Program-made: the position numbers and the translations under genes
Shown here: positions 27,006-62,809 of the stretch, one piece after another
How positions within the stretch are numbered: the first letter of the stretch is position 1
Layout: each line of letters begins with the position of its first letter
NCBI GenBank assembly: GCA_965230935.1
Contig: OZ246400.1
Coordinates: forward strand, 566,359-630,358
Reading direction: 5' to 3'
Length of the DNA stretch: 64,000 nt
Origin: an uncultured Gammaproteobacteria bacterium
GTDB taxonomy: Bacteria; Patescibacteriota; Patescibacteriia; Magasanikbacterales; JBBTQS01
Notes under the pieces: model-generated
Seen by the model: only the letters and a program-made list of their open reading frames with translations
What the model was told of the DNA's origin: nothing
The model's database searches: none

Positions 27006-27539
27006 TCAGTCCGCCGCGAGCGCCGTGGTGCAGTAGTAGTAGCTGCGGTTCGGATCGCCAGCGCCGCCGAAGATGCCCCAGCCACACCGTGGCTTGCTCG
27101 GGGTGCAGCCCTCCTCGACACCATCGTTGTTGGTGTCCTTCTGGATGCACTCCTGGCAGAACCCGTGATCGAGACCACTGTTCTGTGCAGTCTTGCAGAA
27201 GTGGCCCCAGACCGAGGAGAAGCAGTCCTTGTGCATCGTGCACAGATTCCCGTGGCCGATCATCTCCGACGTATCGGGATGCACGCACACGGCCGGCCTG
27301 TCGCCCTCGGTGTTGGTGTGGCACACCAGCCAACCGGGGCGGCAGTCCTCGTTGTACTGGCACGGATCCCCGACCCCGACGAGCGGATCCGTGATGATCA
27401 TCGGATCCGCCTGCATGGTCACGAGGTTACGCTCGGGCTCCACCACTTTCGGGGCGTCCTTCTTGCACCCCGAGGAGATGGTGAGGAAAAACAGCGGCAA
27501 GAGCGCCGCGGCCAACGCAATACGCGTACAGTTGATCAT
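27006..27539 (-). CDS. Cys-rich secreted lipoprotein in GC-anomalous island B
   Basis: Signal peptide with lipobox LTISSGC and at least 14 Cys. TTGACA-N17-TAGGGT promoter plus AAGGAGGG RBS upstream. About 60% GC. Confidence 0.5.
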   Translation of the reverse strand: MINCTRIALAAALLPLFFLTISSGCKKDAPKVVEPERNLVTMQADPMIITDPLVGVGDPCQYNEDCRPGWLVCHTNTEGDRPAVCVHPDTSEMIGHGNLCTMHKDCFSSVWGHFCKTAQNSGLDHGFCQECIQKDTNNDGVEEGCTPSKPRCGWGIFGGAGDPNRSYYYCTTALAAD

Positions 27540-29167: not shown

Positions 29168-29239
29168 GCCTGCGTCGTTCAACGGATAGGACACTGGTCT
29201 TCGGAACCAGGAATGGGGGTTCGATTCCCTCCGCAGGCA
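29168..29239 (+). tRNA. tRNA-Arg (anticodon TCG)
   Basis: Full cloverleaf folded by hand: acceptor gcctgcg/cgcaggc, anticodon loop cTTCGga, T-loop ttcgatt. Confidence 0.65.
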
Positions 29240-29255
29240 CAATCACAAAGATAAT

Positions 29256-29291
29256 AAAAAAGTTGCTTTACCCGTCGTTAGCAACTTTTTT
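29256..29291 (+). terminator. Intrinsic terminator after tRNA-Arg
   Basis: aaaaaAGTTGCTttacccgtcgttAGCAACTttttt. Confidence 0.6.
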
Positions 29292-29428
29292 ATTATCTTT
29301 GATTTTTGACTGCACACCCCCTTGTCAAGGAAGAGACAATCTTGTATTATCTGCCTGGGTGCATAGCAACGTTGTTACTATTGCCCTGCAGTCGCAAAAA
29401 AAATGCAAGCATTTTCATTTACTCCTTA

Positions 29429-29502
29429 CGGGTGCATAGCTCAGCTGGTAGAGCAGTTGCCTCTTAAGCAAACGGTCCTGGGTTCGAGTCCCAGTGCGCC
29501 CA
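29429..29502 (+). tRNA. tRNA-Lys (anticodon CTT)
   Basis: gggtgcatagctcagctggtagagc...cTCTTaa...ggttcgagtcc...tgcgccca. Confidence 0.8.
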
Positions 29503-29582
29503 CCGTAATTATTCCAGGTTCGCCTGTGAGCGAAGCGAACAGCTAGCGAGCAAAGTGAGCGTTGTCATAGTGCGTCCACAAC

Positions 29583-30788
29583 ATGCAATTTATTCATTGG
29601 AAAAAACGCGCGGTTCTCCTCCTAATGGTTGGCCTATTGGCAACCACACTTATCGTCCCTGTCCACGCACAAGAGATATCTGATGAAACTCTAACAGAGA
29701 GTGCATCAGATTTTTTTGATCCGACTGATATACCCCCTGAAGAATTTTATCGTGCCAAGGTCATCGAGGTTCTTAAAGAAGATACGGTTGAAATATCTCC
29801 AGGAATAGTAGAAGAAATTCAGTTAGTGCTCGCAGAAATTCTCAATGGCAAAGAAAAAGGAAATCATATCACCACTACCAACGGTGGAGTAGTGACGATC
29901 GATGATTATCAAAAGGTCTCACCTGGTGACACAATAGTACTTATTAAAATCTACACTGTCGATGGTGGAGCGGATTACTATGTACACGATCATTTTCGTC
30001 TTTGGCCGCTTACCATCATCTTTCTGATCTTTGTCGTGCTGGCAATATTCTTTGCGCGACGTAAAGGTGTTGGTGCAATTGTTGGTTTGATCTTTAGTAT
30101 TTGGATCCTGGTTGCCTTTATCGTTCCGAAAATTATTGATGGCGGTGATCCACTGGTGATTACCTCAATCGGTGTCACAATTATTGCCACTGTTTCATTA
30201 TTTATTGCGCACGGCTTTACCAAACGAACCGCAATTGCACTACTGAGCACACTAGTTACTCTTGCTATTGCACTCGGCTTCTCACAATGGTTTGTAGAGT
30301 TTGCAAGTTTGTTTGGCAAAGGTTCTGAAGACGCATTCTTTTTACAAATGGGAAATCTTGCGCACATCAATTTGCGCGGACTCCTTCTTGCTGGAATTGT
30401 AATTGGTACGCTTGGGGTGCTTGATGACATTACCACTGCACAGACTGCAGTGGTTGGCGAGCTTCGTCAGGCAAATCCCAATCTTTCAAAGAAAGAATTG
30501 TATCGCCGTGGACTGATTGTTGGCCGAGAACATATTGCATCATTAGTAAATACGCTTGTATTGGCATATGCCGGAGCATCGCTACCGCTCTTTATTCTGT
30601 TTTCAGTAAATGAACATGTACCTTTATGGCTCACACTCAACGGGGAGCTGGTTGCAGAAGAGTTCATCCGAACCATCATCGGATCAATTGCCTTGATTCT
30701 TGCCGTGCCGATCACCACATTATTTGCCGCTCACTTTTTACAAAATGAAAAGACACGAAAGGTTCCGGCTGCTAATCACAAACATTAA
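29583..30788 (+). CDS. YibE/F-like polytopic membrane protein
   Basis: N-terminal signal peptide, an extracytoplasmic domain, then about 7 TM segments. Family call is tentative. Confidence 0.4.
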   Translation: MQFIHWKKRAVLLLMVGLLATTLIVPVHAQEISDETLTESASDFFDPTDIPPEEFYRAKVIEVLKEDTVEISPGIVEEIQLVLAEILNGKEKGNHITTTNGGVVTIDDYQKVSPGDTIVLIKIYTVDGGADYYVHDHFRLWPLTIIFLIFVVLAIFFARRKGVGAIVGLIFSIWILVAFIVPKIIDGGDPLVITSIGVTIIATVSLFIAHGFTKRTAIALLSTLVTLAIALGFSQWFVEFASLFGKGSEDAFFLQMGNLAHINLRGLLLAGIVIGTLGVLDDITTAQTAVVGELRQANPNLSKKELYRRGLIVGREHIASLVNTLVLAYAGASLPLFILFSVNEHVPLWLTLNGELVAEEFIRTIIGSIALILAVPITTLFAAHFLQNEKTRKVPAANHKH

Positions 30789-30821
30789 AAAAGGCTCGGA
30801 CACGTTACATGTCTGAGCCAG

Positions 30822-30894
30822 CACCGGCGGCAGGATTCGAACCTACGACCCCTCCCTTACCAAGGGAGTGCTTCTACCACTGAGCTACGCCGGA
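30822..30894 (-). tRNA. tRNA-Thr (anticodon GGT)
   Basis: Reverse complement folds as a tRNA with anticodon loop tTGGTaa. The 1:72 pair is mismatched. Confidence 0.6.
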
Positions 30895-31004
30895 GTACTT
30901 GTGCAACACACATTACAAAAATACATGTGCTTCGTCAAGAGTATGTTGACGATGTCTTTGTAGGCTGGTAGTGTGTAAACACTTTTTGGACCTGATGATG
31001 TATA

Positions 31005-31078
31005 GGGCGGTTAGCTCAGTTGGTTAGAGCGCAGCATTGACATTGCTGAGGTCACAAGTTCGATTCTTGTATCGCCCA
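31005..31078 (+). tRNA. tRNA-Val (anticodon GAC)
   Basis: gggcggttagctcagttggttagagc..tTGACat..ggttcgattc..atcgccca. Confidence 0.8.
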
Positions 31079-31311
31079 CTGGTCGGGTGAATTGTTACTC
31101 CAATTACTACAGTCGGTTAAAGTAATTGTCGCAACAGTTCACCCTTTTGTATTTTACAAAAAAAGTATGTACGTGATTGCAAAAATGTTTTAGGAGATTT
31201 GCTTACCCGACATTGCAAATCGAATAAAACATTTTTGCAATTGAGTAAAAACTTTTTACAAAAACTTATCCACAAAAGTTATGTGACACATTGACAAAAA
31301 ACTTTTTTCTG

Positions 31312-31340: not shown

Positions 31341-31431
31341 GTGTGCAGAAGAAAAAATTTATTCCATGCTTGGAAATTTTTTCTTCAAAAGTTTTTAAAA
31401 ACTTTTTATCCAAACATAGAAGGGGGTGATA

Positions 31432-31802
31432 CTATGCCAGCACGCAAACGTGCAACTCGTCGTAAGCCTGCAAAACGCAAACCTGCTCGTAAGACAGCGG
31501 CTAAGCGTAAACCAGCGAAACGCAAGACGGCAAAACGCAAACCAGCGAAGCGTAAAGTAGCAAAGCGAAAGCCAGCTAAGCGCAAAACTGCAAAGCGTAA
31601 GCCTGCGAAACGTAAGGTAGCTAAGCGTAAACCAGCGAAACGCAAGACGGCAAAACGCAAACCAGCGAAGCGTAAAGTAGCAAAGCGAAAGCCAGCTAAG
31701 CGCAAAACTGCAAAGCGTAAGCCTGCGAAACGTAAGGTAGCTAAGCGTAAACCAGCTCGCCGCACGACTCGTCGAAAGACAACTCGTCGCAAGCGAAGCT
31801 AA
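31432..31802 (+). CDS. Histone H1-like, Lys/Ala/Arg-rich DNA-binding protein with KRKPAKRK repeats
   Basis: RBS gaagggggtg before ATGCCAGCACGC. The protein is almost entirely (AKRKPAKRKTAKRKPAKRKV)n. Contains a perfect 120-bp tandem duplication. Confidence 0.6.
31501..31740 (+). repeat. Perfect 2 x 120-bp tandem duplication inside the histone-like CDS
   Basis: 31501-31620 is identical to 31621-31740. Confidence 0.85.
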
Positions 31803-33141: not shown

Positions 33142-33210
33142 ATACCCCTAGTCTACACGTGAGTGCGCTCTATTGCAAAAGCCCTGGAAGTTGGTACACT
33201 ATGCACACAT

Positions 33211-34236
33211 ATGACTTCTATGAATTCTCAACTTAAATCAACTATCGACAACTTTGACCTAGGGGTAGTGCAGGAGATTAGTAAAATCCCATCTGGTCTT
33301 ATCAACCTTAGCTATCGTATTACCAGTTCCACTGGGTCGTATATTATGCAGCGCATGGGGGATATCTTCACCAAAGAGACAATTGAAGATATGGAAAAGG
33401 TTACCCAACATCTTAAAATCAAATCAATCAATACACCGACATTACTCCGCACGACATCTGAACAATTATTTCATACAGATGTCGATGGACATTTATGGCG
33501 CGTCATGACCGCCATGGATGGCGAGACATATGAAAGTCTTGATGATGATGGGTTGGCACAAGAAGCTGGGCGCGTGCTTGCAGAATTTCACAAAGGTATG
33601 CAGGACTTTGACGCAAGTCAATTACAAAACCATCTGAAACTTCATCAGACACGGGACATTTATGCAGAGTACTGTAATTATGTTGAAGAACTGCTTACCA
33701 CTGAATCTGATCCTCTTATTAAAGAGGCAATCACCTATATTCAAGAAACACTTCCGGATACCTACTTGCCTGTTGGTCTTCCCACAACCGTAATCCACGG
33801 CGACCCCAAAATTTCAAATATCATTTTCAAAGATGGTGTTGCTGTATGTATGATTGATTTGGATACCTGCATTGAACATTCTTCGTTGGTTGACTTGGGT
33901 GACGCCTTATGGTCATGGGTTGGCAGTGAAGGAGACGATCCAAATAATCGTTTTTCACTTGCTCGATTTGAAGCAGCAATGCGAGGGTACATGTCTGTGA
34001 TCCCACTGAGCACTGATGAGCAACACTACGTCTATCGTGGTGCGCGCATGATTGCCTTGGAGCTTGCCTCTCGATTTGCAAAAGACACGATCGATGATTC
34101 TTATTTTGGTTGGGATGCTGACCGATACAAAAGTCGCAAAGCGCATAACCGCGCACGCATGCTTTCTATGGTGCGACTTGAACAAGATATTGTACGGAAG
34201 AAAGATCGGATCATTGATATCCTGAACAATATTTAA
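33211..34236 (+). CDS. Phosphotransferase-family kinase (APH / choline-kinase / CotS-like fold)
   Basis: VIHGDPKISNIIF and IDLDT match the APH catalytic and DFG-like motifs. The start is uncertain (33163, 33211 or 33220). Confidence 0.5.
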   Translation: MTSMNSQLKSTIDNFDLGVVQEISKIPSGLINLSYRITSSTGSYIMQRMGDIFTKETIEDMEKVTQHLKIKSINTPTLLRTTSEQLFHTDVDGHLWRVMTAMDGETYESLDDDGLAQEAGRVLAEFHKGMQDFDASQLQNHLKLHQTRDIYAEYCNYVEELLTTESDPLIKEAITYIQETLPDTYLPVGLPTTVIHGDPKISNIIFKDGVAVCMIDLDTCIEHSSLVDLGDALWSWVGSEGDDPNNRFSLARFEAAMRGYMSVIPLSTDEQHYVYRGARMIALELASRFAKDTIDDSYFGWDADRYKSRKAHNRARMLSMVRLEQDIVRKKDRIIDILNNI

Positions 34237-34276
34237 TCGGTGCGAGGACAGACCACTTTTTTCTATAAAATTTCAA

Positions 34277-34333
34277 AAGCGACCGGATGTTCCTGGTCGC
34301 TTCTGCGTTGTGTTAGTTGTGTGCATGCCGGCC
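34277..34333 (-). repeat. Island C 3' module: CA-rich tract plus A-bulged hairpin, sense on the minus strand
   Basis: Sense strand reads TAGggccggcatgCACACAACtaACACAACgcagAAGCGACCaGGAacaTCCGGTCGCTTttgaaatttt. Confidence 0.6.
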
Positions 34334-35332
34334 CTACGCCGCGATCGACCTCTGGAGCCGACGGTGCATCTGCGTAGCCGGCGGCAACAGCGGATCCACG
34401 GTCACCTGCTTGAGGTCGGGCTCCTGTGGCACGTAGATAAGCCGCTGTCGCACGTTGACCATCTGATTGTGGACTCGGAGTTTTTCGGTGCTCTCTCCGT
34501 AACTCTGAACTCCACCGGAGGTGGCCATGTCCCTGGCGAAGAGCCCGATCACGGTGTGCATGACCACATACTTGACCTGCGGGTAGCCGTTGGCCTCGCG
34601 CAGCGTCTCCGTTAGTGGATGCTCGGCAAACGCGGTGATCCCGTAGCGCTCGAGAACCCCGGCCATCAGACCGTACTCGATGCACCACCCGATGGGCAGC
34701 GGCATGTTGGCGATGTCACCCAGACGAATCCCCTGCTGTCCGCACAACGGCCAGGTGACTTGTGCCAACTGACAGTACGGCTCGGGCAGGAAGTTGAGCC
34801 CGGCTGAGAACCCGGAGTTCTCTGGCCAACCCAACTTGACCAGCCGCGCTTTTGGGGCACCTTCCCACGCCAACAACAGCTTGCCGATCGGATCGGCGCT
34901 CTGCAGATGGGTGAGGTCGGTATCCAAGAAGAAGATTCGCGTGTCGAAGTCGACTCCACGCTGCACCAGATCAAGCACCGCCGCGTACATAGCAGCGCCC
35001 TTGCCGACGCAGAACTCGTTCTTCGGAAGGCCAAACTGCTCACGCAGCACGTTCAGCACTGTGGAACCGCGCCCCAGCATGTCACGCTGCGACACCACTC
35101 GCATGGCGTTGCGCGTTCCGGTCAAGGAGTGAACCACCTCGCGCGCCACGCGCACGGTCGGGTCGTCCTTGTCGGTCATGTTGCTCTCCACGAGCACGAT
35201 CTGACTGGGCTCGACGCCCCGAGAGATCACGTACTCGAGTGTCTGACCAATGTTGCCTTCCTCGAAGAGGGCCGGCAACACCACCACGTCTTCCGGGCGT
35301 AGCTCTTTCCACGCCTTCTCCCACTTGCTCAT
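34334..35332 (-). CDS. GT81-family glycosyltransferase, glucosyl-3-phosphoglycerate synthase-like, in GC-anomalous island C
   Basis: VVVLPALFEEGNIG, GKGAAMYAA, FLDTDL, WPLCGQQ and IGWCIEYGL parallel the mycobacterial GpgS motifs. aggagg RBS before MSKWEK. About 60% GC. Confidence 0.55.
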   Translation of the reverse strand: MSKWEKAWKELRPEDVVVLPALFEEGNIGQTLEYVISRGVEPSQIVLVESNMTDKDDPTVRVAREVVHSLTGTRNAMRVVSQRDMLGRGSTVLNVLREQFGLPKNEFCVGKGAAMYAAVLDLVQRGVDFDTRIFFLDTDLTHLQSADPIGKLLLAWEGAPKARLVKLGWPENSGFSAGLNFLPEPYCQLAQVTWPLCGQQGIRLGDIANMPLPIGWCIEYGLMAGVLERYGITAFAEHPLTETLREANGYPQVKYVVMHTVIGLFARDMATSGGVQSYGESTEKLRVHNQMVNVRQRLIYVPQEPDLKQVTVDPLLPPATQMHRRLQRSIAA

Positions 35333-35539
35333 GTTGCCCCTCCTTCGGTTCAACCCAATGCACGATGATCGTTACCTTGACAATTGCACATTATCGTGCT
35401 ATTGTCTTGGCGGAACTGATGACTCCCCAGTTATCGTTCTAGAAACTCCGCTTTGCGGAGTTTCTTCTTTCCGCCATTTTTCAATCTATGGTAATAAGAT
35501 GATTCCTACTGTATCGTAATTACTTTGGTAAAGCAAGAA

Positions 35540-36628
35540 TCACACTACTACCCATTTATTTTCATTTTTTGCACTACGGTAACATGCGTCAGCAATGCTA
35601 AAGGCACGTAATCCATCGATGATCGTTGGACTTAGTGACTTCCCTTCCAGTAAATTTCGTACAAACCAATATGCTTGACAGGCATAGTAGTCTGAACGAA
35701 AAACAATATCCTCACGGTGGGCTAATGGTGCGAACAAAGGTGTATCTTTCACCATGGCAAACAAATCAGGACGTTCGTACCGATGACATGCTGACTCGTC
35801 TCGAACCGCAATATGATCAAGGTCATATGTCTCTAATCGCACTAGCGCCTTTTGAAAAAAGATCTCAAAATGTCGTATTGACTGATGCGCCGGAATCTCA
35901 TGCCAAATATGTGTCATGGTACCACTCACTCCTTGATCAGTTTCATATTGTACCTCAATAAAATCCTCAACACCGGGATACCCAGCATGGTTACTCATGC
36001 GCGCCTGTACTCGAGTAATTTTTCCAAATAACCACTCGATGATGTCAACGTCGTGAATACCGTGCTCAATCAATACTCCAGCACCAGCAAGTGCCTGATT
36101 ACTTCTCCAGTCAGTAAAATGAGATAATCCTTGAATTGGAAAGATCTGGTCATCACGCAAAATCACATGACGCAATGGTGACTGTTCAGCACACGACGCA
36201 AGAAGAACTTTAAGTGCATGATAGGTGGGCGCATAGCGCAATACAAATCCCACTTGATGAGGCACATCTGCATTAATTAAGAGGTCGTGAATCTTTTTCG
36301 CTTTTGCATGAGAGATGGCAAACGGTTTTTCACAAAAAATCACTTTGCCGGCTGCAATTGCTTTTTCGATTATTGATTCGTGATATACCGTTGGCACACC
36401 AATCACGATCGTATTAATCTTAGGATCGCGAACAAGTGCATCAACATCAGTGGTTGCATACTCAATCTGAAACTCCTTTGCCATTGCTTTGGCTGTTGCA
36501 TCTCGCACATCAGCCACTCCCACAAGGTGTAGCTTATCAGCAAAAAGTGGCTGCACCAGACGAAATGCGCGGGCATGTTCTTTACCAATATACCCAGCGC
36601 CTATAAAACCAACTGTCACTCTATCCAT
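35540..36628 (-). CDS. Gfo/Idh/MocA-family NAD(P)-dependent oxidoreductase
   Basis: VGFIGAGYIGKEHARAF Rossmann N-terminus and EKP motif. Confidence 0.7.
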   Translation of the reverse strand: MDRVTVGFIGAGYIGKEHARAFRLVQPLFADKLHLVGVADVRDATAKAMAKEFQIEYATTDVDALVRDPKINTIVIGVPTVYHESIIEKAIAAGKVIFCEKPFAISHAKAKKIHDLLINADVPHQVGFVLRYAPTYHALKVLLASCAEQSPLRHVILRDDQIFPIQGLSHFTDWRSNQALAGAGVLIEHGIHDVDIIEWLFGKITRVQARMSNHAGYPGVEDFIEVQYETDQGVSGTMTHIWHEIPAHQSIRHFEIFFQKALVRLETYDLDHIAVRDESACHRYERPDLFAMVKDTPLFAPLAHREDIVFRSDYYACQAYWFVRNLLEGKSLSPTIIDGLRAFSIADACYRSAKNENKWVVV

Positions 36629-36714
36629 AGGGATCCATCTTGAAGAAAAATTGTTTGATCTACAATGCGTAAAGAGAGCACGGTTGCGTCCTCTTCACTG
36701 CGTTGTGTTTATCG

Positions 36715-37623
36715 TTAGTATTCTTTAAGCCACCGTGCCGGCGGAAGCAGCGCTTCCACGAAATGCGTACGTTGCCCCCCATCAAAATAAATCTGACGGG
36801 AACGATCGTGCGCATTCCACTCCTGTATTTGCTGTGGGCTTAATGTGTTAAGTCCTCCGAATCGGAGGATCTGCTGCATCAGGAGAAAAATCCGAGTGTA
36901 CATCATCACTACGTACTCGTCCACCGGATGAGCGGCGTGTTCACGAAGCGCACTCGAAAGATAGGATTGAGAAAACCCCTCAACTCCGTATTGCTCTACG
37001 ATGAAGGAGAGTAACCCCAGCTCCACGCCATACCCGCAGGGGATCGGCGCGCGACACAGATCACCAAAGTAAAACGCCTGTTGTCCGGAAAGCGGCCAGG
37101 TAAACCACGCGATTTCGCGATACGGTTCTGGAAGCGCATTTAAGTACGCCACCACCTGTTGATTATCCCGATCATAAGACGCCAACTTGGCCACCCGAGC
37201 ATTTGGACGCAACTTCCATGACTGGAGTAGCGTCTCGAGCAGCTGGATTTGCGCTGCGTTGGTGATGTCAGCATCCAAGAATACCACTCTCGCGTCATCA
37301 GGCGTTTTGTGGCACATCAGATGCACAATACCAGCGTACATCGCCGCACCCTTCCCTCCTGGGAGGGAACCAAACCCATAGGTACGACGCATGATGGATG
37401 CGTACCGTGCCAGTGTGTGCTCTTGGGATATAACATGGTGTGCCGACCCATTAAGCGCACGACGTGCGTGTGCACCGGTTTCATCAGTGCTGTGACTGTC
37501 GACAACCACGATTTGCTCTGAGCGCACACCACAGGCATGCAAATAGGCAATCATGTCGCCAATGGTCGCTTCCTCGTTGTGAGCAGGCAGCACCACTCGA
37601 TCCTGGTCTCGTAGCAGGGGCAT
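36715..37623 (-). CDS. GT81-family glycosyltransferase, glucosyl-3-phosphoglycerate synthase-like (low-GC resident paralog)
   Basis: VVLPAHNEEATIG, PGGKGAAMYAG, FLDADI, WPLSGQQAFYFGDL, CGYGVELGLL. Confidence 0.6.
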   Translation of the reverse strand: MPLLRDQDRVVLPAHNEEATIGDMIAYLHACGVRSEQIVVVDSHSTDETGAHARRALNGSAHHVISQEHTLARYASIMRRTYGFGSLPGGKGAAMYAGIVHLMCHKTPDDARVVFLDADITNAAQIQLLETLLQSWKLRPNARVAKLASYDRDNQQVVAYLNALPEPYREIAWFTWPLSGQQAFYFGDLCRAPIPCGYGVELGLLSFIVEQYGVEGFSQSYLSSALREHAAHPVDEYVVMMYTRIFLLMQQILRFGGLNTLSPQQIQEWNAHDRSRQIYFDGGQRTHFVEALLPPARWLKEY

Positions 37624-37789
37624 ACTCTCTCTCCTTTGCCCCTACAGGAGGGCTGTGATTTCAAAGAACAAATCTACTGTAACGAAGAGGGGTATATTTG
37701 TCAATAATTTTTCTACACTTTTTGTGGATAAATCAAAAAATAACTAAAATTTAGCTATTTTTTATAATTCAATTTGTCAATAAATAATC

Positions 37790-38599
37790 CTACACTTTAG
37801 AAGTGCCATTCTCACGCATTACCTGCTCCATTGCCTGTAATTCCTCCATAGTATTCACCCCTAATGCTTCTAATGGTTCGATTTGTTTTGTGCCAATTTT
37901 AACCCCTTCAGCAATCGCCATGGCGATCAAGTCAGTCAGATAATACTCGTTTGAACGATTATTATTTTGCAATTGATCAATGTGCTCCCACAACCATGTT
38001 GACCGAAAACAATAATACCCGGGATTAAGTTCAGTAATGGCGCGCTCCTGCTCTGTCGCATCCTTATACTCTACAATACGTTGAACATAATTCTCTTTCT
38101 CACCAACAACACCGCGAACAATCCGCCCGTAATGCAACAGCCGCTTACGCCAATCTTCAAAATCAGAAACCGTCGTGGTGGTCATGGTGACATCATTACC
38201 GTATTCAAAATGAAGATCCAAAATATCATCAATCACCTGACACGGCAAATGTGGGTGATCACCGTACAACACAAGCACATGATCGACCTTGTCCTCCAAC
38301 TCTTCGCGTGCGCAAGCAACAGCATGTCCGGTCCCTAATTGTTCTTTCTGCTCCACATACGTATAGTAATCTCCCAATTTTGCTGCAACTTCATTTCCTT
38401 TGTATCCAACAACAATCACCGGGGGGCGAGTTACCCGACATGATTCGATACTATGCAATAAATGGGAAATCAACGGACGGCCATACAACGGTGTAAGTAC
38501 TTTAGGTACTCCACCGTTTCCATTTTGCATACGAGTACCCTTCCCCGCCGCAAGGATAACAATCGCAACGTTATCAACTGGCGAAGAATGTGTGTGCAT
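37790..38599 (-). CDS. Sugar-phosphate nucleotidyltransferase
   Basis: IVILAAGKGTRM G-rich loop. Confidence 0.6.
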   Translation of the reverse strand: MHTHSSPVDNVAIVILAAGKGTRMQNGNGGVPKVLTPLYGRPLISHLLHSIESCRVTRPPVIVVGYKGNEVAAKLGDYYTYVEQKEQLGTGHAVACAREELEDKVDHVLVLYGDHPHLPCQVIDDILDLHFEYGNDVTMTTTTVSDFEDWRKRLLHYGRIVRGVVGEKENYVQRIVEYKDATEQERAITELNPGYYCFRSTWLWEHIDQLQNNNRSNEYYLTDLIAMAIAEGVKIGTKQIEPLEALGVNTMEELQAMEQVMRENGTSKV

Positions 38600-39230
38600 A
38601 TCGACGAATTTCGTCTAGTGTAGAAAAGTACGGAAAGCCGACCTTACGATATAACTCCTCCTCCCACACTGCAAGATTTTTTCGCATAGCCTGGGCAAGC
38701 GTAGGAAAACTCTCTGAAATCACAAAATTTTCATGCGGATTATCATTCACGAATAGCATTGGTCCGCCATCATCTTTCATCCAGTCATGCAAAAAATCAT
38801 GTTTTTGTGATCGGGTTGGATAAATAGCATCAAAATGATCTACCAATCCGGTATGACGAAATTTCTCCATCTGCCATTTTGGATCACCATGGGTAAGGAG
38901 CACAACATTGTACCCGGCATCTTTCATCTCATGCAAAAACAGATGAGCATCAGGAAATACATAATCACCAAGACGATCATGATGTGCTCGCAACCATTCG
39001 TATAATTTTACCTCATCATGATGGGTGCACTGACTGAGTGCTTGCACATGACGATCGAATCCATAACCACTACGACGTGCAGGATGAGACCATGCCCGAT
39101 CATAGCACGCATGCACTTCTTCTGCTGGGATCCCCATACGTTGTCCGCTTTGCTTGATATCACTGATAAAACTATCAAAATCCCACAGTGTGCCGTCAAA
39201 ATCAAGGATAAGTGTTGGTCCTGAAAACAT
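38574..39230 (-). CDS. HAD-superfamily phosphatase
   Basis: LILDFDGTLWD (DxDGT motif I). Start at MFSGPT. Confidence 0.55.
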   Translation of the reverse strand: MFSGPTLILDFDGTLWDFDSFISDIKQSGQRMGIPAEEVHACYDRAWSHPARRSGYGFDRHVQALSQCTHHDEVKLYEWLRAHHDRLGDYVFPDAHLFLHEMKDAGYNVVLLTHGDPKWQMEKFRHTGLVDHFDAIYPTRSQKHDFLHDWMKDDGGPMLFVNDNPHENFVISESFPTLAQAMRKNLAVWEEELYRKVGFPYFSTLDEIRRYAHTFFAS

Positions 39231-39234
39231 ACTA

Positions 39235-39987
39235 TTATGCGTTACTATTGGGCAAACACTCCCAAAGTGATTCAAAAATTCTTTTTTGTGTCATATGAAT
39301 ACCTTCATTCTCTACAATCATTCCAACCGGCTCACCTGAGGCGTCAGCAGAAACATACGCCACACGCCCAGCATAGATAAACATATACGTATCACTTGGT
39401 GCGCCAGCGGTGTGTAATGTCTTACGTTCATCTAATCCATGTGTTTCTCCTTGTTCAAAGCCAATTACCTTCACAGAAATATTTTTTGCCTTGCGTTTGT
39501 CATTAAACTTTGGCATTGCGGAATATAAATGTGATCGAACATCAGCTGAGGAGTAGGCATAATAGGATTTGTCGTTAGCCTCAACACTGCGTGCTAATAC
39601 ATCGTTAAGAATGTACCGCACTCCCTCAAGACCCTCGTACAACATTGATACTGGTTTTTGGCCACCACTGGCATGCAACGATCGCATTTGCGGGATCGCT
39701 TGCTCGAGTGAAGTGCGTGCTCGTGAAAGTTCTTCTTTCTTTGCATCCACTGTTGTAAGTAACTTTTCTGGATCCTCAGCTACAAAGTACTGTCGTGTTT
39801 TTTTATGAAAGTATGCGACTACACCTTCTTCGCGTAATGCCTTCAAAATATCATATGTGGTTCCGCGGTTAATCCCAGCTTCAGTCCCGATGGTGCGTAC
39901 TGGAGATGGCCCGAGTTTAAGGAGTGTCAGATATACTTTAATCTGTTTATCAGACCACCCAAGGTTGTGAAGTGTTTTTTCTATCAT
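39235..39987 (-). CDS. TrmB-family sugar-responsive transcriptional regulator
   Basis: N-terminal wHTH (KVYLTLLKLGPSPVRTIGTEAGINRGTTYDILKAL) plus a C-terminal effector domain. Confidence 0.5.
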   Translation of the reverse strand: MIEKTLHNLGWSDKQIKVYLTLLKLGPSPVRTIGTEAGINRGTTYDILKALREEGVVAYFHKKTRQYFVAEDPEKLLTTVDAKKEELSRARTSLEQAIPQMRSLHASGGQKPVSMLYEGLEGVRYILNDVLARSVEANDKSYYAYSSADVRSHLYSAMPKFNDKRKAKNISVKVIGFEQGETHGLDERKTLHTAGAPSDTYMFIYAGRVAYVSADASGEPVGMIVENEGIHMTQKRIFESLWECLPNSNA

Positions 39988-39993
39988 ACGAGG

Positions 39994-40902
39994 TTAAAGA
40001 TCAAAAACGGTTTTCGCAACACCAAACATACCAGCGTCATTCCCAAGTGCCGCTTGTTGAATTGTTACCATGTCAAATAATTGTGCGAAGCCATTTTGTT
40101 GTGCTTCTTGCATCATGGTCGGTGCAAAAAACTCCCACGCATCAGCCATGTTTCCACCGATCAGACAAAATTCAGGGTTGTATTCATTGATAAAGTTTCC
40201 AACAGCCATACCTAGCCATTTTCCAACGTCTTTCCAAACGACCAATGCGTCTGGATTTCCATTCTTCGCCAAATCATACACTTCTTTAGAGTCAGTAATA
40301 GCAGAATCAATAGTCTCCCGTGCCATCCGAACAACTGCACTTGCGCTTGCAAGTGCTTCAAAACATCCCGGCATACCAAGAGAGCATTGTGGCCCATCAG
40401 GACACAACCGTACATGACCAAGCTCTGCACCAACACCATATGCGCCATCAAAAATCTTGTCATGAATGACAATTCCACCACCGATACCAGTTCCAAGAGT
40501 GAGCAACACTGCACTATGTGCACCTTTTGCAGCTCCTTGCCACACCTCTCCTAACATCGCAGCATTAGCGTCATTATGCACCACCACTGGCAACGCAAAC
40601 TTGTCTTTAATGAGGTCGCCAATTGGAAAATTATTTTCTATGGTAATATTAGGAAATTGCAAAACAATACCCTCTTTGGCATTTGTCGGTCCTGCTGCTG
40701 CAACACCAATACCAACAAAGTCATTTCCATCCGAACCATCTTGAAGCGTCTCAATAACTGAAAAAAGATTCTGTATAACATGCTCCTTACCGAGATCTGA
40801 TTCTGTAAGAACTTTATGACGCGACGTAATTTTCCCTTGGGCATCAATAATTGCCCCCTTAATCGCAGTTCCTCCTAAATCAATGGCAATAGCATGTTTC
40901 AT
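39994..40902 (-). CDS. ROK-family sugar kinase (glucokinase-like)
   Basis: IDLGGTAIKGAII N-terminus and the ROK zinc motif region (CPDGPQCSLGMPGCFE). Confidence 0.7.
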   Translation of the reverse strand: MKHAIAIDLGGTAIKGAIIDAQGKITSRHKVLTESDLGKEHVIQNLFSVIETLQDGSDGNDFVGIGVAAAGPTNAKEGIVLQFPNITIENNFPIGDLIKDKFALPVVVHNDANAAMLGEVWQGAAKGAHSAVLLTLGTGIGGGIVIHDKIFDGAYGVGAELGHVRLCPDGPQCSLGMPGCFEALASASAVVRMARETIDSAITDSKEVYDLAKNGNPDALVVWKDVGKWLGMAVGNFINEYNPEFCLIGGNMADAWEFFAPTMMQEAQQNGFAQLFDMVTIQQAALGNDAGMFGVAKTVFDL

Positions 40903-40993
40903 AATATGCAAATAAAACAGTCCTATCTTAGCATAGCTGTGTAATTTGGCAAGCCTATGCAAGCGGGTAAAAAAGGTAAAATTCTTGGATTAG

Positions 40994-41066
40994 AAAACGG
41001 GGTCTCGGATGGTTGACATCGTTGAGTTTCCCCGTGTTTCTGTTGTGTGTTGTTTGTGTGCTGTGA
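40994..41066 (-). repeat. Island D 3' module: CA-rich tract plus long bulged hairpin, sense on the minus strand
   Basis: Sense strand reads TGAtcacagCACACAAACAACACACAACAGaaacacGGGGaaactcaacgatgtcaaccatccgagaCCCCgttttctaa. Confidence 0.6.
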
Positions 41067-42482
41067 TCAGCCCGCCAAGCGGTGGATGACGCGATCCAGA
41101 CGATCCTGGAACACGAAATTCTGCTCGTGGAGCATCTGCACCGACGGGATGATGCGATCGGTCAGACCGCTATCCCGGATCACCGGACCGGGGAGCTTGC
41201 CGTGCCCCCGCTCGTCGTCCGACCTGCTGGGAATGCGCGCAGCGTGCTCGAGTTGCACCAACCCCGCGTTGAACCGCTGGTAGTCCGCCATGGTCCAATC
41301 GGTGATCGGCTTGCCGAACCACACGTAGTAGCGCATGAACCGCCCGATACCGTCCTGCATGAGGAACTCTTTGGTATCGTCGTTGCACGCATCCACGCGC
41401 GGGGAATGCGTCTCGACCTGAGCGATGGCCTCCGGATGACCGTTCTTGCGGTATTCGATGCAGGACTCGACCCAGATGGACATCAGGGTCTCCTCCCAGT
41501 ACCGAGTCGCAAACGGCCGGTTGAAGGCAATGCGTCCCAGCATCCCGAACTCGCCGGTCAGCATCCACTTGTGCTCGGTCAGAACCATCCACAAGTGGTG
41601 TGCCACCCGACGCACGTTCGCCGGAGTCGCCGGATGCGTCGCGATGTCGCCCAGCAGGTTGCGGAACGACATGCACGTCTCGTTCCCCCGCCCACCGCGG
41701 GTGATCTTGACGTAGCGATACCGCAGGTCGCGATGATCGCCACACGCCGCACGATCAGCCAGTGGGAACGCCAGATGCCCCAGCGCGTGGTAGCAGGGCA
41801 TCATGTCGTAGCGCACGTCGGCGTCGTGCTGGATCACGGACTCCTTGGCCGCTTCCGGGTGCAACGCACGCATGGCCAGCATGCCGGCCAGCATGGTCAA
41901 CCCTTTGCCACCACTCGGACGCTCGTCCAGGCCCAGCACCGGCAGCAGCCGCTGCCAGTCCAGGCAGTCGAGCATCTCGTCCATGTTGACCAACCGCACA
42001 CCACGACCGAAGAACTCCGAAACCGCTGTGGTCGCCGCGTCACCGGACTTGCAGTTGGCCACGATGATCCGATCACCAGGCACGTACTGCGTCGCGTAGT
42101 CCAGGACGTGGCCCACGACGTCGGTGTCCTCCTTCATGGGGATGATCACGTACGCGTGCTTCTCCAGACGATGGGCGATCTGATCCGCACGTGCGCGCAT
42201 CTGCTCGGCACTCGGGTAGAAGAAGTGCTCCAGCGCCGGACGCTTGTCCGGATCCATGGACGTACGACCCTTCACCGACGCGTACGAACGCACCAGATCC
42301 GGACCGCCACCGACGGCGACCTTGATCTGTTCATCCGTGCCTCCTTTTGGGAACAGCGTGCCAGCAACGTCCGCACCGTTACCGCCGTCTTCACGCGCAC
42401 CGACCGGTGCGCCTTGAGTGGTTGTTTGGGTTTGATCCCTCATTTTCTGGTGTATCTCCTCTGATACGTGCGCAGGCGTCAT
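41067..42482 (-). CDS. Large (471-aa) GT81-like glycosyltransferase paralog in GC-anomalous island D
   Basis: VIIPMKEDTDVVGHV, SGGKGLTMLAGMLA and VIQHDADV echo the GT81 motifs. About 64% GC. Confidence 0.45.
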   Translation of the reverse strand: MTPAHVSEEIHQKMRDQTQTTTQGAPVGAREDGGNGADVAGTLFPKGGTDEQIKVAVGGGPDLVRSYASVKGRTSMDPDKRPALEHFFYPSAEQMRARADQIAHRLEKHAYVIIPMKEDTDVVGHVLDYATQYVPGDRIIVANCKSGDAATTAVSEFFGRGVRLVNMDEMLDCLDWQRLLPVLGLDERPSGGKGLTMLAGMLAMRALHPEAAKESVIQHDADVRYDMMPCYHALGHLAFPLADRAACGDHRDLRYRYVKITRGGRGNETCMSFRNLLGDIATHPATPANVRRVAHHLWMVLTEHKWMLTGEFGMLGRIAFNRPFATRYWEETLMSIWVESCIEYRKNGHPEAIAQVETHSPRVDACNDDTKEFLMQDGIGRFMRYYVWFGKPITDWTMADYQRFNAGLVQLEHAARIPSRSDDERGHGKLPGPVIRDSGLTDRIIPSVQMLHEQNFVFQDRLDRVIHRLAG

Positions 42483-42639
42483 GCACTGCGTTTTTTGGAA
42501 AAGAACGGTGTGCAGCTTCGTGCTAACACAGGTTTTACAGCTACAGCTCGGAAATGACTCGACGATGGATTCTCCTCAGTCCCATGTCTTCACCACTTCA
42601 CTCATCAACGGATGATCTCCGCTCATGAGTGCAGTTGTG

Positions 42640-43791
42640 TTACAGAGCAAATGGATTTTCCCCTGTACGCGCCTGGTGTGCCATTTGTCCAACAAGCAAA
42701 TTCCAACTAACAAAGTTAGGCGCTGCCAGTGGCTTCCCAGTATCAGCATGATAATTTTCATGCATGCCACCGCTGGTCTTAATATCGCGCAAACAAATGG
42801 TCATAATTTTGTCTGCCAACTCCTTGGCCTGCTTTGTGAACCCATAATTCAACAAGGCATGTAAATATAGGTAATTGGCGATTGGCCACACCGGCCCTTG
42901 CCAATTAGAATGCGGCTTGATGATATTTCGATTATTGTATCGGGGATCTGTTTTTGTCAAGGTTCGAATTCCCCATTTTGCCCACATCTCCTTTGGATTA
43001 ACCACATATCGCTTAATTTGAGATTTTCCGTCTTTAGGTGATGCAAGTCCGGCCCAAAGTGGAATAATATTGGAATAGGTGTGACAACGGATAAACTCAC
43101 CGGTCTTGGTATCAATGTTGTAATAAGTCTTATCTTTTGCATCCCACAAATGCTTGTTAATATTACGCTTAAGCTGTGCCGATCGTTTTGCCCAGTGCTT
43201 TGCACGAGCAGTTTTGCCAAGCGCACGAGCAATCTTGCTCATTGCCTTATATTCTCGGTATAAAAACGCGTTTAGATCTGCGGCAATCACACTACGATTT
43301 GGATACTCCAACGCAGCGACGTTATTGTCAGCACCAGATTCCATGCTGTCATACCAACACCCAAGATCATACTCTTTTTTCCATGAGGTGCGTTCGCGAT
43401 ACGTAATCGCTTTTTCAAGTTTTGCAAAATGCGGCTTAATCCAATCAAAACTATTGAAATTTTTTGATGCAAAATAAATCCCTTGTGCTAAAAACGGTTT
43501 AATATGATGCAAACGCATATCACGTCCTTTTGGAGTAACCAATCCTGGGGTAAACCCTGTTTTTGCGTTTGTGTACTTCAAATAGTTGAGCGCCCAATTG
43601 CGCAGATATACCGCTTCACTGGGCAACTCACTGAGCAAACTCATCCCAATAAAGAAGGCGTCCCAATCCCACTGCTCTTCATATGGACCAGCCGGAACCA
43701 AATAATCATACTTGAGCGCACCTTTTGCACGACGCTTTACTTCACTTTTATGAGCTAAGAATGCTTTTTTGATTTGCTGTTCAAGAGACAT
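42640..43791 (-). CDS. (alpha/alpha)6-barrel glycoside hydrolase candidate (GH63/GH37/GH100-like)
   Basis: Length and aromatic-rich composition only; no motif identified with certainty. Start set at MSLEQQ. Confidence 0.35.
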   Translation of the reverse strand: MSLEQQIKKAFLAHKSEVKRRAKGALKYDYLVPAGPYEEQWDWDAFFIGMSLLSELPSEAVYLRNWALNYLKYTNAKTGFTPGLVTPKGRDMRLHHIKPFLAQGIYFASKNFNSFDWIKPHFAKLEKAITYRERTSWKKEYDLGCWYDSMESGADNNVAALEYPNRSVIAADLNAFLYREYKAMSKIARALGKTARAKHWAKRSAQLKRNINKHLWDAKDKTYYNIDTKTGEFIRCHTYSNIIPLWAGLASPKDGKSQIKRYVVNPKEMWAKWGIRTLTKTDPRYNNRNIIKPHSNWQGPVWPIANYLYLHALLNYGFTKQAKELADKIMTICLRDIKTSGGMHENYHADTGKPLAAPNFVSWNLLVGQMAHQARTGENPFAL

Positions 43792-43792
43792 A

Positions 43793-44638
43793 TTATTGTT
43801 GCCACGATTCTGTAGCACGTTTATATACTTCGGCTGAACCAACATCAAACCATTTTCCAGAAAATGGGTAGCCGCATAATTCTTGCTCACCAGTGAGTGT
43901 GCACAGCACATCTTCTTCAAAACTTGCCGTTTGGGAAGTAATGCTTTTCAAGATCGCGGGGTTCACCACATAAATACCACTATTGATCATGTGTGAATTT
44001 TTATTACTTCGCTCTTGCTTCGCATTAAACCGTACAACATAATTTCCTTCCATGCCTACGGTTCCCCAAGGTTCGGTATCAGTCACTGTGGTAACTGCCA
44101 TCGTAACCGCACTGCCATTTTTGTCATGAAATTCAATCAAGCTCAACCAATCCACCTGTGCCAATACATCACCATATACTAACAAGAATGGTTCGTCTCC
44201 AATTTGTTCTTTTGCAAGTGAGATAGCATGCGCAGTTCCTTTTTCCTCTAAATCAGTAATATACGAAATATGAGCCCCAAATCGGGACCCATCTTCAAAA
44301 TAGCGCTCAATTTTACTCCCAAGATGTCCGGTAACGAGAATAATATCCTTAAGTCCTGCAGCCACCAACGACATAATGGTATGCTCAATGAGGGGTTTTT
44401 CATTAACCGGCAACATGACTTTTGGATATTCATGCGCTAATTTACCCATTTTTGTGCCTTTACCACCGGCCAAAACCACCACTTTAGTAACTTTCGACAA
44501 GATGTGCTGGTTCAAAATATACTCAATCGCATGGGAACGATTGCGAATGGTCTTTTTGTCGATCATTCTGTCGACCTTCTTTAAGATTGAAGGCGAAAGT
44601 GTAATCGTAAGTCTCTCTTTTTTTGCCTGTGGCGCCAT
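43793..44638 (-). CDS. Ribbon-helix-helix domain fused to a sugar-phosphate nucleotidyltransferase
   Basis: N-terminal RLTITLSPSILKKVDRMID (CopG-like) then VVVLAGGKGTKM NTP-transferase. Confidence 0.55.
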   Translation of the reverse strand: MAPQAKKERLTITLSPSILKKVDRMIDKKTIRNRSHAIEYILNQHILSKVTKVVVLAGGKGTKMGKLAHEYPKVMLPVNEKPLIEHTIMSLVAAGLKDIILVTGHLGSKIERYFEDGSRFGAHISYITDLEEKGTAHAISLAKEQIGDEPFLLVYGDVLAQVDWLSLIEFHDKNGSAVTMAVTTVTDTEPWGTVGMEGNYVVRFNAKQERSNKNSHMINSGIYVVNPAILKSITSQTASFEEDVLCTLTGEQELCGYPFSGKWFDVGSAEVYKRATESWQQ

Positions 44639-44740: not shown

Positions 44741-44852
<112 letters not shown>

Positions 44853-44925
44853 ATAGCTGCTTTCGCGCTATTGCTATTTGATTGTTTTGAAAATGAAGAC
44901 GCACACATACCGCAAGTATAAAACA

Positions 44926-47985
<3,060 letters not shown>

Positions 47986-48369: not shown

Positions 48370-48475
48370 GGATTGATGTGGATGAGTTGTGTATGATTGA
48401 CGTTTCCTCTAAATCATGCGACGCTATGGCTATGCGTCGATCCTGACGCACAAAACCATCAGACGAGGAGGGCTG

Positions 48476-49039
48476 ATGATCGAGTTGCTCACGACAATGG
48501 CGTTCGTAGCGCCTGACGACAGACCAGAAATGAATCCGGAGCCTCCTGAACAGGAGACGCACGGGTTCAATGTCCCGTTGTGGGCCGGCTGGATGCTGAT
48601 GTGTCTGGCCCTGGGTGCGGCGTTCGCTTTGCTGATCTCACCACTCAGCGCTGCCTGGTGGGTGCACCTGATCAACGGTGCGGTTGCCATGGCGATCATC
48701 TTCCTACTGAGTGTGCTGATCGCCAGGATGAACAACCCGGAGCTCCTCACCAAGATCAAGCAGATGCTGTTGATCAGCTTCATGGCAGGAACGTTCTGCT
48801 ACCTCGGCTTTGCGCTGGCGAGCTGGGAGCTGATGGTCGAGGATGGGCAGTACTACGCCAAGGAGCTCTCCTTCATCAACTTGCGGCACATGTTCACCGG
48901 CCAGATCGTGACCTTCATCGGAATCACGTTCTGGTGGCGAACCGCTAATGGTGACTGGGCGACGCCAACGCGAAAAGATGGAACCCCACCATCACCGGAT
49001 TCGAGCCGACCAACGCAACGACCAGGACGATTCCTGTAG
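48476..49039 (+). CDS. Membrane protein (4-5 TM) in GC-anomalous island E
   Basis: gaggaggg RBS before MIELLTTMAFV. About 60% GC. Confidence 0.4.
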   Translation: MIELLTTMAFVAPDDRPEMNPEPPEQETHGFNVPLWAGWMLMCLALGAAFALLISPLSAAWWVHLINGAVAMAIIFLLSVLIARMNNPELLTKIKQMLLISFMAGTFCYLGFALASWELMVEDGQYYAKELSFINLRHMFTGQIVTFIGITFWWRTANGDWATPTRKDGTPPSPDSSRPTQRPGRFL

Positions 49040-62250: not shown

Positions 62251-62251
62251 G

Positions 62252-62801: not shown

Positions 62802-62809
62802 CTAATATC

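Follow-up and report, generated by a model that had tools for sequence, protein, structure and literature searches.

A locus of sugar metabolism in the window analysed here (a stretch of 64,000 nt, OZ246400.1, 566,359 to 630,358, in whose numbering all positions are given) contains three glycosyltransferase (GT) genes whose base composition departs from that of the genes around them. This raises the question of whether the locus was recently entered by foreign genes or is an old possession of such genomes, and which pathway it encodes. The preliminary description of this DNA regarded the GT gene of intermediate GC content as resident and the other two as foreign islands. We lean, by a modest degree, towards a different answer: a vertically conserved locus for sugar salvage and glycoside cycling, typical of the candidate phyla radiation (CPR), as opposed to a backbone locus into which two foreign paralogs recently inserted. 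As enzymes, the products are of a known kind but form new, divergent branches, and the conserved GC enrichment of single genes is the unexpected part.

Ten co-oriented open reading frames (ORFs) occupy the minus strand between 34334 and 44638. Their domains were assigned by Pfam and NCBIfam scans, which bore out the ten-gene list and its order as first proposed. The interval 33211-44638 had been taken as a single minus-strand locus, but its left ~1.1 kb (33211-34236) belongs to a plus-strand NahK-like kinase gene that is convergent with GT339. In the following list, X471, GT302 and GT339 denote the GTs of 471, 302 and 339 amino acids (aa), and NTP1 and NTP2 the nucleotidyltransferases.

43793-44638, minus strand: NTP1, NTP_transferase domain (PF00483, 120 bits) with a weak N-terminal RHH segment
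42640-43920, minus strand: MGH1-like/GH63 (alpha/alpha)6 hydrolase (PF22422, 133.7 bits)
41067-42482, minus strand: X471, predicted GpgS/MpgS-like retaining GT-A enzyme of an unannotated family (no family match)
39994-40962, minus strand: ROK-family sugar kinase without HTH domain (PF00480, 204 bits)
39235-39987, minus strand: TrmB-family sugar-responsive transcription regulator (PF01978, 47.7 bits)
38574-39275, minus strand: HAD-superfamily phosphatase (PF00702, 41.6 bits)
37790-38599, minus strand: NTP2, GlmU-N-like sugar-1-phosphate uridylyltransferase (GlmU models, 197-208 bits)
36715-37623, minus strand: GT302, GT81-like, 302-type subfamily (GpgS model NF010496, 77 bits, E 9.6e-22)
35540-36628, minus strand: Gfo/Idh/MocA NAD(P)-dependent sugar oxidoreductase (PF01408, 90.1 bits; PF22725)
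34334-35353, minus strand: GT339, GT81-like, 339-type subfamily (GpgS model, 33 bits)
33163-34236, plus strand: NahK-like anomeric sugar 1-kinase of the APH fold (PF01636, 85.9 bits)

Base composition of the glycosyltransferase genes

The GC content at third codon positions (GC3) of the window ORFs has a median of 0.409 and a robust standard deviation of 0.045 (n=51). Against this background X471 (GC3 0.80, z 8.8), GT339 (0.81, z 9.0) and GT302 (0.56, z 3.5) all show the atypical composition looked for in a recently acquired island; the hydrolase is backbone-like (0.41-0.42) and the Gfo/Idh/MocA gene stands at 0.34. The three GT genes had been credited with three different GC contents, the middle one like the backbone. 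However, X471 and GT339 are nearly equal (62.9% and 61.7%; backbone 42-45%), and GT302, with an overall GC content of 53.9%, is not backbone-like. The GC-rich genes form one codon-usage class, in which adenine at third positions (A3) amounts to 0.02-0.08 and cytosine and guanine there to about 0.4 each, uniformly along the gene. The steps in GC content are sharp, with 15-20 points gained or lost within ~50-100 nt of the ORF ends, and the spacers beside the GC-rich genes fall back to 0.35-0.48 within about the same distance. Given these spacers, biased mutation across the region, or a mutational equilibrium towards GC that shows in weakly selected genes, is less likely. An assembly chimera was also rejected, as the junctions are reproduced at 99.99-100% identity in three independent assemblies (two from ENA, one from Logan) and unrelated samples show the same pattern.

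Compositionally atypical islands that arrive by horizontal transfer ameliorate over time, and several features of the window would suit recent arrivals, by which paralogs were added to the intermediate-GC GT or replaced in a targeted way. The two genes of about 62% GC have a GC3 of 0.80-0.81 against 0.41 ± 0.045 in the backbone, and, much as in genomes of high GC content, their A3 is just 0.05-0.08. The shift extends to the amino-acid composition and to every codon position, as would be expected after a long stay in GC-rich DNA. Moreover, spacers of 100-200 nt flank each GC-rich gene whereas backbone genes are tightly packed, and GpgS, the nearest characterised family, is largely actinobacterial. 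With transferred islands the window thus shares sharp GC steps and a donor-like codon usage. Unlike in such islands, however, the anomaly is the size of single genes and is interleaved with backbone genes, and it is conserved at orthologous positions in genomes with saturated synonymous sites, co-diverging with neighbours of normal GC content.

Conserved neighbourhoods and the persistence of high GC

Relatives were sought by word-indexed searches of 5.8 billion sequence clusters, in which the three GTs gave 14, 7 and 4 matches, and by an exhaustive X471 profile search of 1.84 billion representatives, which returned 203 family clusters. The best non-self GT matches are 48-52% identical and come from CPR-type contigs. 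Few family members carry an organism name, and these are mostly Kerfeld-, Uhr-, Wildermuth- and Saccharibacteria metagenome-assembled genomes (MAGs), with further Patescibacteria and unclassified MAGs; the non-CPR exception among the named X471-family members is a distant 774-aa Gemmatimonadota fusion. That the pathway would be an oddity in a CPR genome, as first held, is not supported, since most of the named members are CPR MAGs. The suggested origin from Actinobacteria or Deltaproteobacteria likewise found no support: neither search found a close homolog in a plausible donor or elsewhere outside CPR-type contigs. Actinobacterial GpgS proteins are at best 28-32% identical to GT302 and do not match X471.

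The neighbourhoods of these relatives (labelled L0nn or P0025, loci in other assemblies, of which L004 is a Kerfeldbacteria MAG and L002 an ENA assembly) bear more directly on residence. In L008 an X471 fragment is followed by genes for ROK, TrmB, HAD, NTP2, the GT339 ortholog, the NahK-like kinase (minus strand) and MJ0043_C, in the order of the window. GT339 has its ortholog at the corresponding place in both L008 and L010, X471 has one in L008, and the NahK-like kinase keeps its place in L008 and L010-L012. The ROK ortholog of L008, in the same position, is 56% identical; the syntenic HAD orthologs of L008 and L010 show 62% identity, and the NTP2 orthologs are 72-76% identical there and 44% identical in L015 and L020. 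An NTP2 ortholog lies immediately upstream of a GT339/302-type gene in L008, L010 and L020. Absence from the same site in close relatives, a mark of recently acquired islands, was thus not found for GT339 or X471. It is GT302 and the Gfo/Idh/MocA gene that are missing at this position from L008 and L010. GT302 has its nearest relatives in L020 and L026/P0025 (37-38% identity), and the 302-type GT of L026 is followed by a Gfo/Idh/MocA gene 62% identical to that of the window. Because the GC-richest genes sit in syntenic slots of the relatives, they are the resident genes, and GT302 with its oxidoreductase is a separate two-gene module that is extra in this genome. The proposal of foreign islands joining a resident paralog is in this respect partly reversed.

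Upstream of X471, the hydrolase is directly adjacent in nine independent loci (the window, L004, L005, L014-L016 and L023-L025; that of L025 is a gene fragment at a contig end). In L016 and L023 an NTP1-like gene stands ahead of this pair. TrmB adjoins it in L015 and L023, following X471 in the latter, and L015 has TrmB, NTP2 and HAD genes beside it. By these gene orders, X471 and the hydrolase, like GT339 and NTP2, appear to be old co-inherited pairs.

The high GC content is found at these sites as well. For the X471 family the values are as follows.

Window: X471 GC3 0.80, adjoining hydrolase 0.41
L004: X471-family gene 0.83, hydrolase 0.48
L005: X471-family gene 0.90, hydrolase 0.59
L014: X471-family gene 0.69, hydrolase 0.45
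L015: X471-family gene 0.80, hydrolase 0.39
L016: X471-family gene 0.74, hydrolase 0.48
L024: X471-family gene 0.84, hydrolase 0.33
L025: X471-family gene 0.65, hydrolase 0.47

The difference is +0.18 to +0.51 in these eight independent loci, and +0.14 to +0.39 for the GT339/302-type genes and their partner genes:

L008: GT339/302-type gene GC3 0.67, partner gene 0.39
L010: GT339/302-type gene 0.575, partner gene 0.35
L020: GT339/302-type gene 0.65, partner gene 0.51
L026: GT339/302-type gene 0.71, partner gene 0.52

The partners also diverge together. Hydrolase and X471 distances are correlated over eight loci (Mantel r 0.70, p 0.009), and both neighbour-joining trees give the groups {window, L004, L005, L024} and {L014, L015, L016} with L023 outside, X471 evolving about twice as fast as the hydrolase. 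When window, L008 and L010 are compared pairwise, each of the three GT339 distances exceeds that of NTP2 by a factor of 2.0-2.2. The import of a GT gene alone would break this co-divergence, and the import of a whole cassette would leave the hydrolase equally GC-rich; neither is seen, which argues against recent import in either form.

Recent insertion of the two GC-richest genes is therefore very improbable. It would have to place newcomers in the positions that they occupy in L008 and L010, where GT302 is the absent gene. It would also have to accommodate orthologs that are GC-rich in at least eight other loci and co-diverge with AT-richer adjoining partners, best matches of only about half identity from CPR-type contigs, and actinobacterial proteins that are more distant still. 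Signs of mobility are equally missing: no integrase or tRNA gene lies at the GC steps, flanking repeats are short and at chance level, no mobility domain occurs in the locus genes scanned, and IMG/VR viral contigs yielded no relative of either GT family. A mobile-element insertion was rejected on the basis of these repeats and the missing viral relatives. The conserved asymmetry suggests instead that high GC content is a long-lasting property of these GT families within CPR genomes of moderate GC content. Compositional islands are routinely read as recent horizontal transfer, and the present case, with GC-rich genes at orthologous sites in many genomes, calls for caution.

Several observations nevertheless weigh against vertical conservation with a lasting GC excess, the first of them being the above-mentioned shift at every codon position and in amino-acid composition. 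The trees comprise eight loci and are simple neighbour-joining trees. Distant X471 homologs (27-31% identical) in the very AT-rich L017-L019 are not GC-rich. L023, on the other hand, is GC-rich throughout (NTP1, hydrolase, X471 and TrmB all with GC3 0.68-0.80), so GC-rich genomes with the same locus do exist. Window and L004 share 72% identity in the hydrolase but only 48% in IleRS (window 5224-8151, minus strand); the hydrolase, or the cassette, was therefore probably exchanged among CPR lineages. The hydrolase of L004 is lower in GC than the L004 backbone. Finally, four-fold degenerate sites in window, L008 and L010 follow the order of branch lengths: an amelioration model that starts from a GC3 of 0.95 predicts GC contents of 0.69, 0.54 and 0.50, and 0.75, 0.61 and 0.455 are observed. 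The GC-rich genes of these three loci may thus descend from one ancestral GC-rich acquisition that has incompletely ameliorated. For the deep comparisons, a simple ancestral transfer followed by amelioration was rejected, because four-fold sites have reached saturation there (the excess identity is 0.015-0.07 in X471 and, from window to L004, 0.02 in IleRS); it was not rejected for window, L008 and L010, whose backbone four-fold sites keep 7-17% excess identity.

These points can be joined into another history, in which the GT genes, or entire cassettes, long ago reached several CPR lineages from GC-rich ones that own the locus natively, such as that of L023, and now show various degrees of amelioration or are overwritten from time to time with GC-rich alleles by homologous recombination in naturally competent bacteria. 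It would explain the uniformly GC-rich L023 cassette, the shift at every codon position, the agreement of four-fold GC content with branch length near the amelioration prediction, and the similarity of the hydrolases of window and L004 far beyond that of their IleRS. It would also explain why the GC-rich genes within one genome have a common GC3 level (0.80/0.81 in the window, 0.64/0.67 in L008). We nevertheless judge it unlikely. Transfer of the cassette predicts a GC-rich hydrolase, but the hydrolase is backbone-like in all eight asymmetric loci, and replacement of X471 alone predicts discordant trees, but the two genes share their major clades (Mantel p as above). Moreover, no donor closer than ~50% identity was found among ~15 billion proteins, and the L023 X471 is just 35% identical to that of the window.

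Under the preferred reading of long residence, the enrichment itself needs a cause, and the candidates are selection acting on mRNA or coding sequence, local GC-biased conversion, and repeated allele replacement. We propose, tentatively and with more doubt than conviction, that in CPR genomes of moderate GC content a few accessory genes, these GTs among them, are actively held at a GC3 of about 0.65-0.9 over very long times while adjacent co-inherited genes stay at the genomic equilibrium of about 0.35-0.5, through selection or extremely local biased conversion; targets of selection would be transcript stability or regulation through rare codons. If this is true, strong single-gene GC islands in these genomes do not mark recent horizontal transfer. 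If it is true genome-wide, it would show clearly that bacteria can keep a gene-specific base composition over long times, and selection versus biased conversion at synonymous sites would be directly testable in CPR metagenomes.

The glycosyltransferases, their partner enzymes and the proposed cycle

The three GTs had been described as GT81 (GpgS-like) paralogs. That they are homologous and nearest in predicted fold to glucosyl- and mannosyl-3-phosphoglycerate synthases (GpgS/MpgS) was upheld, but all three lie far below the GpgS equivalog cut-off, a point that also counts against the proposed function: in the curated model NF010496 (cut-off 262) GT302 reaches 77.4 bits, GT339 33.1 bits and X471 gives no match. 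GT302 and GT339 are 37% identical (E 6e-55), and X471 stands at about 20-23% identity to them in local and profile alignments, in agreement with the earlier expectation that these are not recent in-genome duplicates. In BLAST, X471 shares with the other GTs an echo of GGKG...DAD only, and it has no sequence-level match to GT81, Pfam or NCBIfam models. Its likeness to GT81 comes from its predicted fold and from profile-profile comparison, in which its family (7 members) aligns with the GT339/302 family end to end over 302 columns (hhalign 98.7%, E 1.9e-16). The predicted GT-A folds are closest to GpgS/MpgS structures; for X471 every other GT-A scores 14.1 or below, and the GT339 model has the same four structures on top as the X471 model. 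The GT339/302 profile matches mycobacterial GpgS chains (E 2e-9). None of the three belongs to GT55 (MpgS, Pfam Osmo_MPGsynth) by sequence model. The comparison with MpgS-type enzymes covered R. xylanophilus MpgS (GT81, 3F1Y), T. thermophilus MpgS (GT55, 2WVK) and mannosylglycerate synthase (GT78, 2BO4); structural alignments gave identities of 14-20% for X471 and 15-22% for GT339. Unlike MpgS, X471 matches neither the Pfam GT55 model nor another Pfam family, and its profile reaches 2zu7 with an E of 1.8 at best. Domain fusions in distant X471 relatives (544-1095 aa), considered as a functional clue, were uninformative, as only a weak BtrH_N match and an SHMT match appeared. All three GTs would be GpgS/MpgS-like retaining GT-A enzymes whose membership in the GpgS equivalog is not demonstrable.

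The roles of single residues were taken from M. tuberculosis GpgS, in which PxxxE (Glu54), GKG (Lys114), DxD (Asp134/136), Tyr229 and Glu232 serve the donor side and Thr187 (GRVTEL) binds the acceptor carboxylate (PMC2581804). The donor-side residues are invariant across the GT339/302 family and actinobacterial GpgS (alignment A3). Invariant equivalents occur in the X471 family (P115/E118, K193, D220, Y328 and E330; alignment A1), where either D or E occupies the second DxD position (D222). The window GTs accordingly share PxxxE, GKG, DxD and GY.VE with the GpgS enzymes of GT81 (M. tuberculosis Rv1208 and M. hassiacum; 4Y6N, 3E25, 7P5L) and keep the motifs of the Lys114-Asp134-Glu232 network. 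On the acceptor and sugar-discrimination side the match to GpgS fails in GT302 and GT339: the position aligned with Thr187 is Ala or Val, in AR(V/L)(A/V)KL, and the Glu of PLSGE is replaced by Gln, in PL(S/C)GQQ. X471 retains ML(T/S)GEF, and its Thr187 equivalent is ambiguous. Conservation of the binding residues, which the preliminary description put forward as a check, thus held for the donor side and, in GT302 and GT339, not for the acceptor Thr187 position. With these two changes, the acceptor and donor sugar of GT302 and GT339 may differ from 3-phosphoglycerate and glucose. GT302 and GT339 also differ from GpgS in an insertion around (E/D)N(S/E/Q)G...LP.PY, and X471 in a GRGNE motif and an N-terminus longer by ~100 residues.

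In its pathway, GpgS takes part in a cycle of synthesis and cleavage together with a phosphatase and the GH63-type hydrolase GgH, and the window GTs are similarly accompanied by a phosphatase and a GH63-type hydrolase. The GH63 assignment was confirmed by scores above both cut-offs (PF22422 133.7 bits, cut-off 27; PF03200 76.3 bits, cut-off 22.4). The best PDB sequence matches of the hydrolase are GH63 glucosidase I, TTHA0978, YgjK and mycobacterial GgH. Among mannosylglycerate and glucosylglycerate hydrolases it matches TTHA0978 of T. thermophilus (E 1.3e-9) and the M. hassiacum GgH chains, and it is genetically paired with a GpgS/MpgS-like synthase. Its matches to GH63 glucosidase I and YgjK are, however, at least as good, and it is not a member of the glucosylglycerate hydrolase equivalog NF047898 (41.5 bits, 550 required). 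The HAD phosphatase carries the DxDxT motif, readable as DFDGT in the translation. It matches generic PF00702 and HAD_2 only, and not the Cof-type HAD-IIB of MpgP/GpgP (TIGR01486); in L004, the surroundings of X471 include a Cof-type HAD that matches MPGP weakly (29 bits against 165). The ROK kinase scores 221.6 bits with ROK_glcA_fam (cut-off 260). The oxidoreductase resembles inositol 2-dehydrogenase and UDP-GlcNAc 3-dehydrogenase, below both cut-offs.

The NahK-like kinase has the N-acetylhexosamine 1-kinases 4ocu, 4ocj and 4wh1 as its best solved relatives (4ocu: E 6.4e-24, residues 15-349; homoserine kinase 2ppq: E 7e-5), and this full-length similarity would place it with NahK over other APH-fold kinases. 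Its L008 ortholog (5042-6058, minus strand) is split into ORFs of 172 and 159 aa and may be a pseudogene or a sequencing frameshift. NTP2 is covered by GlmU models in its N-terminal 240 positions only and has no acetyltransferase domain. The best NCBIfam matches of NTP1 are Arch_glmU-N, MurU (132 bits) and a ManC-like model, all below their cut-offs. The NahK-like kinase beside NTP2, and the resemblance of NTP1 to MurU, recall the salvage pairs NahK-GlmU and AmgK-MurU; unlike in those pairs, both nucleotidyltransferases of the window are below the equivalog cut-offs, and their product would feed GT81-like transferases and not peptidoglycan synthesis. In NTP1, the fusion of an RHH segment to a sugar-1-phosphate nucleotidylyltransferase is an unusual architecture, although the RHH_1 match is weak (17.7 bits, E 0.0034, below cut-off); the segment could couple the synthesis of nucleoside diphosphate (NDP) sugars to its own transcriptional control.

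From the families of these enzymes a cycle can be outlined for one or more small alpha-glycosides, running through salvage, activation, transfer, dephosphorylation and hydrolysis under TrmB control. A free sugar would first receive a phosphate from the ROK kinase, or from the NahK-like kinase at C1, and NTP2 and NTP1 would turn the sugar-1-phosphate into an NDP-sugar. X471, GT339 and GT302 would then transfer the sugar to small, probably phosphorylated acceptors, the HAD phosphatase would remove the phosphate, and the GH63/MGH1-like hydrolase would cleave the glycoside again. TrmB, and possibly the RHH domain of NTP1, would regulate the set, and the Gfo/Idh/MocA enzyme, a companion of the 302-type GT, would oxidise or reduce a sugar or an acceptor. 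Gene neighbourhood suggests the hydrolase as the partner of X471, NTP2 and the NahK-like kinase as those of GT339, and the oxidoreductase as that of GT302; the NahK-like and GlmU-N-like pair hints at a UDP-N-acetylhexosamine (UDP-HexNAc) donor for the GT339 branch. The logic of a solute gene set first proposed here is thus supported by the conserved neighbourhoods of other genomes, but its glucosyl- or mannosyl-glycerate product, though possible, was not established, given the Ala or Val of GT302 and GT339 in place of Thr187. As a whole, the earlier functional guess was reasonable but over-specific, and its evolutionary counterpart was unsupported. Further points count against the cycle: phosphoglucomutase is absent from the locus, the HAD is not of the Cof type, and acceptor, donor and product are read only from family resemblance and gene neighbourhood. 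The context of the distant X471 homologs is one of lipids, with PAP2/acyltransferase neighbours in L017 and L019.

This last context, together with the suggested UDP-HexNAc donor, the MurU resemblance of NTP1 and the altered Thr187 and PLSGE positions, would also suit a role in the cell envelope, that is, a glycoconjugate, glycolipid or protein glycosylation fed by salvaged HexNAc or hexose, with the GH63-like enzyme trimming or recycling the glycan. CPR bacteria generally rely on salvaged envelope precursors. Such a role seems distinctly unlikely, however, since the synthase is strictly paired with an MGH1-like hydrolase in the nine loci, the phosphatase is a soluble HAD accompanied by a TrmB sugar regulator, and the Pfam and NCBIfam scans of the locus detected no flippase, polyprenyl-phosphate transferase or membrane GT. 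The cycling of small glycosides is therefore preferred. X471 represents a rare family without a Pfam or NCBIfam model, and its close pairing with a GH63-like hydrolase recurs in several CPR classes, which points to the synthesis and turnover of small glycosides for storage, stress protection or sugar buffering; such turnover would sit in organisms thought to be metabolically minimal. The literature was also searched for CPR in connection with glucosylglycerate, mannosylglycerate hydrolase or GC3, and no pertinent work came up.

Further features of the locus and the window

Some gene starts of the locus may lie inside the listed ORFs. The likely starts of the hydrolase (near 43845), the ROK kinase (40911) and GT339 (35332) give 401, 305 and 332 aa, respectively, and an alternative start of X471 at 42443 gives 458 aa; disorder is predicted for X471 residues 1-83. 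The sole noteworthy site in a promoter and terminator scan is promoter-like and lies at 37704-37676, upstream of GT302; the counts of promoters and terminators were not above shuffled expectation. Immediately upstream of the sugar locus are 23S and 5S rRNA genes (44743-47948, minus strand), the 23S match measuring 3013 nt against a model of 2925 positions. The rRNA genes appear to be unlinked, because the 64-kb window contains no 16S rRNA gene.

The GC3 distribution of the window is bimodal, with five or six further genes in the GC3-rich class (0.65-0.86):

27006-27539, minus strand: 177-aa orphan
48416-49039, plus strand: 207-aa protein
56342-57235, minus strand: methyltransferase
57207-59525, minus strand: 772-aa orphan without Pfam match
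61265-61927, minus strand: phosphoribosyltransferase
19700-20068, plus strand: 122-aa ORF

Antisense genes were considered as a cause of GC-richness, with a 460-aa plus-strand ORF over X471 and a 795-aa ORF over 57207-59525, and rejected. Both are no longer than in synonymous-codon shuffles and are disrupted in orthologs; long antisense ORFs are a by-product. Among the neighbours of X471 in other genomes, genes with a GC3 of 0.71-0.87 were seen at 1093-1947, 5357-6193 and 6305-7327 (all plus strand) in L004, 4091-4711 (minus strand) in L015 and 3040-3471 (minus strand) in L005; they include two orphans, a Cof-type HAD and a HAD-like protein.

Two tRNA clusters, at 61991-62802 and 29168-31079, comprise Pro-Phe-Ala plus Leu, and Arg-Lys-Thr-Val; the tRNA-Lys(CTT) in these clusters reads AAG, the codon favoured by the GC-rich genes. 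A gene for a Lys/Ala-rich basic repeat protein (AKRKPAKRK...) lies at 31341-31802 on the plus strand and contains a perfect 120-bp tandem duplication (2.1 copies, 31500-31756), of which L002 apparently has one copy fewer.

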